Source of the DNA: Candidatus Nomurabacteria bacterium
GTDB lineage: Bacteria > Patescibacteriota > Minisyncoccia > Phycocordibacterales > SBAW01
DNA: 64,000 nucleotides
Direction: 5' to 3'
Assembly (NCBI GenBank): GCA_943348815.1
Contig: CALQYT010000001.1
Coordinates: forward strand, 12,488-76,487
The translations under genes and the position numbers were made by a program. Under the pieces are notes generated by a model, which ran no database searches, had not been told where the DNA came from, and saw only the letters and a list, made by a program, of their open reading frames with translations. Shown here one piece after another: positions 13,331 through 13,421 of this stretch. The stretch's first letter is position 1. Every line of letters begins with the position of its first letter.

Positions 13331-13421
13331 GAAAGTATCAAGTTTCAGGTATCAAATTTCAAATTTTTATACTTTATACACTTGTTTGCTACTTGGCCCT
13401 TGATACTTGATACTTATACCT
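13331..13421. repeat. MITE-like inverted-repeat element (GTATCAAG/CTTGATAC family), empty copy, ending at the ruvA ATG
   Basis: The left half (gaaagtatcaag...caggtatcaaa...) and right half (...tttgctacttg...cttgatacttgatacttatacc) match the halves that flank the four-helix-bundle gene at 26507..26991, and the copy at 34379..34440. Confidence 0.6.

Follow-up and report, generated by a model that had tools for sequence, protein, structure and literature searches.

Inverted heptamer arrays before ruvA, ruvC and rnpA of a Patescibacterium as putative ORF-less and IVP-loaded forms of a mobile, promoter-like cassette

A repeated element lies immediately upstream of ruvA, ruvC and rnpA in a 64,000-nucleotide (nt) stretch of contig CALQYT010000001.1 (here called the window, meaning the whole stretch analysed), the host of which is, on a dnaA-anchored comparison, a Candidatus (Ca.) Adlerbacteria-like Patescibacterium. 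This element is a Patescibacterial member of the class of heptamer repeats resembling the short tandemly repeated repetitive (STRR) sequences, and it has been inserted both without an open reading frame (ORF) and loaded with a gene of the 23S_rRNA_IVP family (IVP). The explanation that we consider probable is that the three copies, A at ruvA, B at ruvC and C at rnpA, are ORF-less and IVP-loaded forms of one mobile, stem-forming heptamer cassette, the arms of which may also act as promoters. Copy B would be the full form, with a left array, a Shine–Dalgarno sequence, the IVP gene and a right array, and copies A and C would be ORF-less miniatures consisting of the arrays only (Table 1).

An earlier note on this DNA had described an inverted-repeat element abutting the starts of the three genes, and such repeats are indeed present there (the ATG codons being at 13422 for ruvA, 26992 for ruvC and 34441 for rnpA), in the form of inverted arrays of a 7-nt unit, AAGTATC/GATACTT, at all three loci. 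The arms had been taken for unique terminal repeats; they are instead tandem arrays, of the STRR type, in which the number of units varies. Each heptamer comprises a conserved pentamer (CAAGT in the left arms and ACTTG in the right arms) and two variable bases; TRF reports the period of 7, and a register-aware scan concurs. With at most one mismatch, CTTGATAC has 66 matches in the window as against 35 ± 6 expected, and the clustered matches are confined to the ruvA, ruvC and rnpA loci. At their right ends, the copies at ruvA and ruvC agree almost completely for about 40 nt, reading GTTTGCTACTTG(G/T)CCC(T/C)TGATACTTGATACTTA..ATG.

The arms of the window copies are complementary (74–100% over 10–31 nt), and the predicted fold of both A and C is a long hairpin (z = −4.5 to −6.5, with none of 200 shuffles equally stable) of 5-bp helices interrupted by 2 × 2 loops. 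In the hairpin predicted for copy C (−30.8 kcal/mol), the region of the rpmH stop codon is paired with that of the rnpA start. The description of every copy as a pair of inverted arms is right for A and C but not for the interval before ruvC (26928–26991), which holds a right arm only and in which no inverted repeat was found. The partner of this arm is a left arm some 400 nt further upstream, at 26507–26541, which is that of copy A except for one extra heptamer, so that the arms of A and B are near-identical and differ by a single unit; the two arms of copy B pair in a dimer fold (z = −5.9). Searches of the window with Rfam covariance models and a tRNA scan gave only five tRNAs that reach the gathering score, none of them at the three loci, and the Rfam scan revealed no rRNA gene in the window. 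Intrinsic termination was considered and rejected, there being no U-tract after the hairpins and no hit at these loci in a terminator scan; canonical terminators exist elsewhere in the window, for example near 22570–22640.

The status of the copies was examined by comparison with relatives, for which a dnaA-anchored scan supplied 80 loci, all from Paceibacterota including Ca. Adlerbacteria (DnaA identity 56–94%; individual loci from all comparisons are designated L below). In the window, Pfam matches place rnpA directly after rpmH, next to dnaA. About 60 relatives have an rpmH|rnpA spacer of −1 to 30 nt; it measures 62 nt in the window and 65 nt in L063, and only in these two, among the dnaA-anchored loci, does an ACTTG-heptamer palindrome occupy it. 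Most relatives have −5 to 22 nt at yebC|ruvC and the window 494 nt, a length made up of the arm, the IVP gene and the second arm; Pfam gives here the gene order ruvB, yebC, a 117-amino-acid (aa) ORF and ruvC. Between rpsT and ruvA there are 24 nt in L218 and L219 (RuvA 74% and 71% identical) and 118 nt in the window; a third relative has 67 nt at this junction, including a right arm, and the same genome has an IVP cassette at yebC|ruvC. In L116, which is syntenic with 13.4–17.3 kb of the window, the element lies between a Mur ligase gene and the next gene, a junction of 21 nt in the window. Since the same junctions are far shorter in relatives, the three copies are, judged by these lengths, insertions at gene junctions otherwise a few nt long. 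Among the related Paceibacterota compared, the cassettes are patchily distributed; few genomes have them at these junctions, and other junctions are occupied elsewhere. The element thus shows presence/absence polymorphism, with three loci in 64 kb, at least 120 metagenome matches and junction occupancy that varies among relatives.

The yebC|ruvC junction also receives inserts of other kinds. A different conserved insert of 100–175 nt is found there in L039 (912–1019), L046 (4179–4355) and L051 (3322–3467), all in flipped coordinates. This insert has the common motif GTACAC(A/G)ATTTTTCTGCTGAAAA(T)TTGCTCA, shows complementarity at long range and could represent a small element of another type or a non-coding RNA. 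L019 (3677–3780, flipped) contains here an inverted repeat that is perfect over some 30 bp (TACAACCAAAAGAAAAAGAGGAAAAAAGAG and its reverse complement) and then TATACT-6 nt-ATG, a hairpin-plus-promoter insertion that is not heptamer-based.

The element occurs in more than a few copies, related genomes included: when metagenome contigs were scanned with the exact pattern, at least 120 loci were obtained, and in relatives the element sits at other junctions. In the subset with a G+C content of at least 0.48, the layout of the window (stop codon, left array, short spacer, right array, 6–10 nt and ATG) recurs in L109, L116, L122, L135, L154 and L118 (the same as L063), and a right array alone, typically with a divergent upstream gene, is present in L115, L186, L175 and L181. 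Empty and loaded versions both exist: L109 is the ORF-less form of the cassette that carries an ORF in L205, their left arms being nearly identical. Many of the low-G+C matches are long (A/C)TACTT(G/A) arrays with an inverted partner. The large proteins of these low-G+C loci are Bacteroidota-like in appearance, which is not a taxonomic assignment, and a hidden Markov model (HMM) made from close homologues found no IVP gene beside the arrays in the fetched DNA. A cyanobacterial origin of the metagenome matches was rejected because only one of the 120 listed loci is HIP1-rich. Carriage by phages was rejected too: the 17 matches in viral contigs are mostly coding coincidence, with arrays in two and IVP in none. 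The 18-nt pattern occurs within a conserved low-G+C phage coding sequence (...GGCACAAATTGGTTGGATTGAAATTACAGG..., opposite strand) in L221, L225, L234–L236 and others, and two metagenome matches (L156 and L199) likewise lie in phage-type coding sequence, as coincidences without an array.

Other Paceibacterota have inverted heptamer arrays built from different units, sometimes at the identical junction. These units are TAGAnnT in L073, where they surround a terminator-like hairpin, ATGAAAT/TTCATAA in L081, AGCTTCT/AGAAGCT in L015, AATTGTT in L074 and ATACGAA in L072. The Parcubacteria contig L073 has at least four copies in 8 kb (3598–3741, 3998–4078, 32–110 and 7037–7110, flipped), in which long (TAGAnnT)n arrays are mirrored by (AnnTCTA)n and the centre is taken up by a perfect palindrome or by a terminator hairpin of canonical form.

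IVP genes were first described in intervening sequences of 23S rRNA, which RNase III excises. The ORF between the arms of copy B matches the Pfam family 23S_rRNA_IVP (PF05635, a four-helix bundle; E = 1.2e-13), and the nearest solved structure is PDB 2RLD, with five chains (E = 3e-12); the gene call in Logan gives a protein of 108 aa. No second IVP copy was found in the window by tblastn. A single search returned 5933 homologues at E ≤ 1e-5, many of them on contigs of about 1 kb, which is to be expected of genes flanked by repeats. The window IVP gene has a canonical AGGAG (26578–26582) before its TTG start, in contrast with the leaderless host genes around it, and the IVP genes of L204, L238 and L241 likewise have AGGAG or GGAG upstream. 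This observation suggests that the cassette brings its own translation signal. Between IVP and the ruvC right arm, L063 (276–640), L208 (545–748) and L175 have a conserved ORF of 67 aa that runs in the opposite direction (MRNYTIAARVWAG...) and is absent from the window.

Across bacterial phyla, IVP genes are associated with inverted heptamer arrays, the units of which differ by lineage and change in step in both arms. The link was traced in 21 contexts of IVP homologues from the candidate phyla radiation (CPR), Marinimicrobia, Aminicenantes, Nostocales, Planktothrix, Bacillota, Bacteroidota and Chloroflexota, and inverted arrays surround IVP in all of the CPR contexts fetched and in nearly all of the others. 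In the CPR, this is so at four independent junctions, namely yebC-IVP-ruvC (L202, L203 and L208), aminoacyl-tRNA synthetase-IVP-prsW (L204), nusB/NUDIX-IVP-rnc (L205, L207 and L210) and ftsX-IVP-pyrG (L209, with the unit AAATCCG/CGGATTT), besides an integrase-adjacent copy (L095). Nostoc has (AATTCGC)4-IVP-(GCGAATT)4 three times and (AATTCGT)4-IVP-(ACGAATT)4 once, Aulosira has AAATTCA/TGAATTT around IVP, and Planktothrix has CCCCAAT (the classical STRR1) and CGTAAAT; it is between AATTCGC/GCGAATT, AATTCGT/ACGAATT and AAATTCA/TGAATTT that the co-variation of the arms is apparent. The contexts further include uvrB-IVP-purD in Marinimicrobia, IVP between cas2 and cas1 in Anabaena, hsdS-IVP-hsdR in Monoglobus, IVP inside an RND efflux operon in Chondrinema, and IVP with inverted arrays in Aminicenantes and Chlorohelix.

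These arrays are distinct from background by two measures. In the 120-nt flanks of IVP genes, the best lag-7 autocorrelation has a mean of 15.75/21 as against 9–10 for lags 5, 6, 8 and 9, and a lag-7 score of at least 16 is reached by 12 of 28 flanks as against 28 of 23379 background windows. Flank complementarity at z ≤ −3 was obtained for 15/21 IVP genes and for one of 60 control positions; the IVP-flanking stems measure 20–31 bp, and their dimer folds have z = −5 to −13.6. The association is apparently general in bacteria. In L095 (reverse strand, 1340–1960), IVP lies between two direct copies of a left-type array, about 75% identical, followed by a right array, and a gene for a XerC/D-like tyrosine recombinase is immediately upstream; this arrangement may be a clue to how cargo enters the arrays. 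In L214, L215, L239, L240, L242 and L217 (annotated plasmids), IVP sits inside operons whose genes normally abut (cas2-cas1, upstream of cas1, drmD-MmeI, hsdS-hsdR, RND adaptor-permease and helicase-methylase), many of which are defence loci.

The promoter likeness of the arms has to be seen against the expression signals of the host, which is largely leaderless (as seen, for example, at 6442–6503, 9925–9965, 19662–20139 and 47959–47979): a TAnnnT peak lies 6–7 nt before the ATG in 15/44 genes with an upstream gap, and Shine–Dalgarno sequences are rare. Divergent gene pairs in the window are 17–41 nt apart, with overlapping back-to-back −10 boxes. Because the unit CTTGATA holds both TTGATA and GATACT, and three units (21 nt) space the two hexamers 17 nt apart, so that four units yield TTGATA-17 nt-GATACT, each arm resembles a promoter that faces outward. 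Of 25 array ends with an ORF behind them, 21 have GATACT at 6–10 nt before the ATG, and 22 have TTGnnA exactly 17 nt upstream of GATACT. In a promoter scan, the left arms score 9/12 (for copy A, two sites as against 0.3 expected), the right arms, with TTGCTA-17-GATACT, score 8/12, and on the rpsT side TTGATA-17-TAGGAT scores 9/12. The −10 element had been read as tacttata; the actual hexamer is GATACT (13409–13414 and 26979–26984), 7 nt before the ATG. The idea of a shared promoter survives in part, a sigma-70-like geometry being present at ruvA and ruvC, at the host's own −10 distance, but not in the rnpA copy. Consensus and geometry together suggest that the arms have promoter activity, and promoter donation at ruvA, rpsT and ruvC is a plausible and favoured reading. 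The strongest argument for it comes from locus A, where the 24 nt that formed a bidirectional, leaderless promoter region were divided by the insertion, so that rpsT and ruvA both need promoters within the element or at its edges.

If the cassette reading is right, two levels of function may be envisaged. The complementarity of the arms is common to the whole family, which points to a stem, in RNA or DNA, as the primary function; the arms would pair so that, in a read-through transcript, the insert is bracketed and insulated or excised, by analogy with the IVP-bearing intervening sequences of 23S rRNA that RNase III removes. The other level would be lineage-specific, in that each arm could be read outwards as a promoter of the sigma-70 type. 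The right arm would set GATACT 7 nt before the ATG of ruvA and of ruvC and so replace the promoter or the translational coupling lost on insertion, and at locus A the left arm would likewise serve the divergent rpsT. The rnpA gene is probably expressed by read-through from rpmH across the hairpin. Spread of the cassette might occur by recombination between arrays or through an activity of IVP itself.

Several findings weigh against parts of this reading. As regards the promoters, the boxes native to the host are mostly strong TATAAT or TATACT without a clear −35, GATACT agrees with TATAAT at only 4/6 positions, and the score of the right arms is under the threshold of 9/12. In copy C the last GATACT is 1 nt from the rnpA ATG, so that the promoter geometry fails, and heptamer families with other units, such as CGGATTT before pyrG in L209, are not promoter-like. 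Moreover, the −35/−10 spacing follows automatically from the 7-nt period and is therefore no independent evidence of selection for promoter function. As regards the stem, flank complementarity is weak or absent in 6/21 IVP genes, and the variable dinucleotides of the A and C arms are mostly unpaired, which makes these arms a poor RNase III substrate. As regards mobility, no target-site duplication was found on comparing filled and empty rpmH|rnpA, yebC|ruvC, rpsT|ruvA and Mur ligase junctions, and no transposase, REPIN-associated RAYT or recombinase was found that would account for movement, L095 alone among the loci having a neighbouring XerC-like integrase. The element had been called similar to a miniature inverted-repeat transposable element (MITE), a label that has to be withdrawn: it is no classical MITE, given the lack of target-site duplications and a loaded form whose ORF encodes the IVP four-helix bundle and no transposase. 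A MITE of the Tc1/IS630 type with a TA target was rejected because the junction sequences do not fit.

A rival explanation, which we regard as unlikely without dismissing it, is a purely RNA-level device comparable to an intervening sequence in mRNA. According to this, the sole role of the arrays is to pair with each other in polycistronic transcripts; cleavage of the resulting stem, by RNase III or some other nuclease acting on double strands, frees the IVP mRNA and leaves the downstream message with a 5' end just before its AUG, and the unit sequence resembles a promoter only incidentally. All of the heptamer families, including those with units that are not promoter-like, have a single feature in common, namely arms that are inverted and co-vary; the stems flanking IVP reach 20–31 bp, the whole spacer between co-directional genes is always filled by the element, and the classic context of IVP is the 23S rRNA intervening sequence excised by RNase III, all of which speaks for such a device. 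However, the genes at locus A diverge, so that neither transcript holds both arms, and the ancestral 24-nt promoter region has been lost there; right-arm-only copies with a divergent upstream gene exist in L115, L186, L043, L175 and L181; and in A and C the stem is broken after every 5 bp.

It has also to be asked whether the arrays are mobile at all. They could be operators at which a trans-acting regulator controls a recombination and repair regulon (ruvA, ruvC, recA and others), which we consider very improbable. CTTGATA copies do lie directly upstream of recA (L122) and of a gene for an IrrE/M78-type peptidase (L135), besides ruvA and ruvC, and repair genes are in mild excess over expectation among about 16 distinct targets; yet the sampling is biased, as the copies at ruvA and ruvC supplied the search pattern, and unrelated genes make up the rest of the targets (rnpA, rpsT, pth, rnc, prsW, a holin-like protein, the electron transfer flavoprotein ETF-alpha and several unknowns). 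Nor would a regulon be expected to lack the site at these genes in most relatives, to have arrays downstream of genes and around IVP, to vary in unit number, or to have unrelated heptamers at the same junction, as in L015, L033 and L074. A LexA/SOS box was rejected, the motif being no LexA-style palindrome and the targets diverse. Scarcely credible, finally, is the view that the arrays are neutral slippage products, that is, long simple sequence repeats (SSRs) in spacers whose position by IVP or start codons is without function. Heptanucleotide repeats are the most over-represented class of long SSR in many bacteria, and slippage has been proposed for them (Mrazek 2007, as cited in PMC4679880 and PMC4692102); the copies do differ by whole units. 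Slippage does not account for matched inverted arrays around one gene family across phyla, for near-identical arms at unlinked loci, or for insertions of 60–500 nt in junctions that are 0–24 nt long in relatives.

A wider proposal, which is tentative and which we hold to be possible but not probable, is that IVP proteins and STRR-type heptamer repeats are two halves of one bacterial system in which an IVP oligomer recognises its cognate arrays. Possibly one unit would be bound per subunit of a pentamer, in the manner of TRAP on triplet repeats, and the protein would mobilise, protect or regulate the cassette; ORF-less arrays, including the ruvA and rnpA copies, would then be footprints or landing pads. 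To our knowledge, no function has been established for IVP proteins since the 1990s or for STRR-type repeats since 1990.

Like MITEs, REPINs and Correia elements, the element is short, non-coding and dispersed, with inverted-repeat arms and presence/absence polymorphism; a longer ORF-bearing relative exists, and promoters may be donated to neighbours. Correia elements carry outward promoters. Unlike MITEs and REPINs, the window element has no target-site duplication and is associated with no transposase or RAYT that could be found, its arms are tandem repeats of variable number, and its ORF encodes a 108-aa helical bundle without known catalytic function.

The closest relatives are the STRRs, defined as short tandemly repeated repetitive heptamers in cyanobacteria (Mazel et al. 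1990, as cited in PMC4692102). Heptanucleotide repeats are over-represented and unexplained (PMC4692102, PMC4679880): TAACTGA repeats occur in Beggiatoaceae, Cyanobacteria and Bacteroidetes and end about 1 nt before start codons without a Shine–Dalgarno sequence (PMC4679880), GGGAATC repeats occur in Xanthomonas and Nostoc (PMC4692102), and ATTGCGAATTG repeats number 79 + 26 in Nostoc PCC 7120 (PMC2408588), where, as found here, such repeats flank Nostoc IVP genes. The window arrays share with these the 7-nt unit, the imperfect tandem arrays of 2–6 or more units, the dispersed, intergenic and lineage-specific occurrence, and often an end a few nt before a start codon without a Shine–Dalgarno sequence (PMC4679880). 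They differ in forming inverted pairs around a present or former IVP gene, in being demonstrably insertions and in having a unit that doubles as −35 and −10 hexamers; moreover, the original definition concerned heterocystous cyanobacteria, whereas the window host is a Patescibacterium, and IVP genes of Nostocales show the same architecture. The heptamer-repeat papers PMC4679880, PMC4692102 and PMC2408588 make no mention of IVP or four-helix-bundle genes, and a search found no literature linking IVP genes with heptamer repeats, an absence that is no proof since most subscription journals lay outside the search.

The rRNA intervening sequences with an IVP (S23p) ORF resemble copy B in having a PF05635 cargo, bracketing inverted repeats with the potential to form a stem, and ORF-containing and ORF-less versions at the same kind of site, as reported for CPR rRNA insertions, where the protein is called functionally uncharacterised (PMC11270868). 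The window element differs in lying between protein-coding genes (yebC and ruvC) and not in rRNA helices, and in having arms that are heptamer arrays and also promoter-like. Another comparison is with Avd, the accessory protein of diversity-generating retroelements, a pentameric relative of PF05635 that binds nucleic acid (PMC10053308). It has the same four-helix-bundle fold family, 2RLD having five chains, but the window IVP has no neighbouring reverse transcriptase, template repeat or variable repeat, its neighbours being housekeeping genes. IVP genes have also been seen between cmr3 and cmr2 and near cas genes (PMC3936711).

IVP genes in rRNA genes, in cas and restriction-modification loci and in housekeeping operons have been one puzzle and heptamer repeats another, and matched arrays in at least eight phylum-level groups join the two. 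For Patescibacteria, the cassettes indicate how closely spaced, leaderless housekeeping genes can stay active after an insertion between them, namely through the promoter-like sequence that the insertion carries. The heptamer signature offers a means of finding such putative promoters and strain-variable sites in the genomes of uncultured Patescibacteria.

Table 1. Features at the three loci (window coordinates; hexamers on the minus strand are given in reading direction)
Feature	Position	Strand	Details
rpsT	13058–13303	−	divergent from ruvA; Pfam Ribosomal_S20p
rpsT-proximal leader	13304–13330	−	G+C-rich hairpin at about 13309–13331 (fold)
TAGGAT hexamer in this leader	13318–13313	−	9 nt before rpsT ATG (13303–13301)
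Copy A, left arm	13331–13365	−	five heptamers AAGTATC AAGTTTC AGGTATC AAATTTC AAATTTT; minus strand TTGAAA (13362–13357)-17 nt-GATACT (13339–13334), directed at rpsT
Copy A, A+T-rich spacer (loop)	13366–13384		TATACT hexamer 13367–13372
Copy A, right arm	13385–13421	+	TTTGCT ACTTGGC CCTTGAT ACTTGAT ACTTATACCT
Copy A, right-arm hexamers	13386–13391; 13409–13414		−35-like TTGCTA, 17 nt, −10-like GATACT, 7 nt, ruvA ATG 13422
Short hairpin TTCCAGCG...CGCTGGAA	26482–26509	+	spans yebC stop codon 26495–26497; 3' half is inserted DNA
Copy B, left arm	26507–26541	−	GGAAAGTATCAAGTAGCAAGTTTCAGGTATCAAA; minus strand TTGATA (26538–26533)-17 nt-GATACT (26515–26510)
IVP cargo gene, 108 aa	26587–26913	+	TTG start; longest ORF 117 aa from GTG 26560
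Copy B, right arm	26940–26991	+	ends before ruvC ATG 26992
Copy B, right-arm hexamers	26956–26961; 26979–26984		−35-like TTGCTA, 17 nt, −10-like GATACT, 7 nt, ATG
Copy C, left arm	34379–34407	+	GTAGCAA GTAGCAG GTACCAA GTATCAA A; directly 3' of rpmH stop 34376–34378
Copy C, right arm	34408–34440	+	AACTTGTT ACTTGAA ACTTGAG ATTTGAT ACTT; abuts rnpA ATG 34441

Two further observations concern other repeats and spacers. At 36978–37042 and 43835–43897 of the window, within long ORFs, are imperfect tandem repeats with periods of 27 nt and 33 nt and about two copies each. In L009, L017 and L062 (flipped, about 11340–12080), the stretch from dnaA to rpmH, where the origin is presumed to lie, is some 450 nt longer than in the other relatives.

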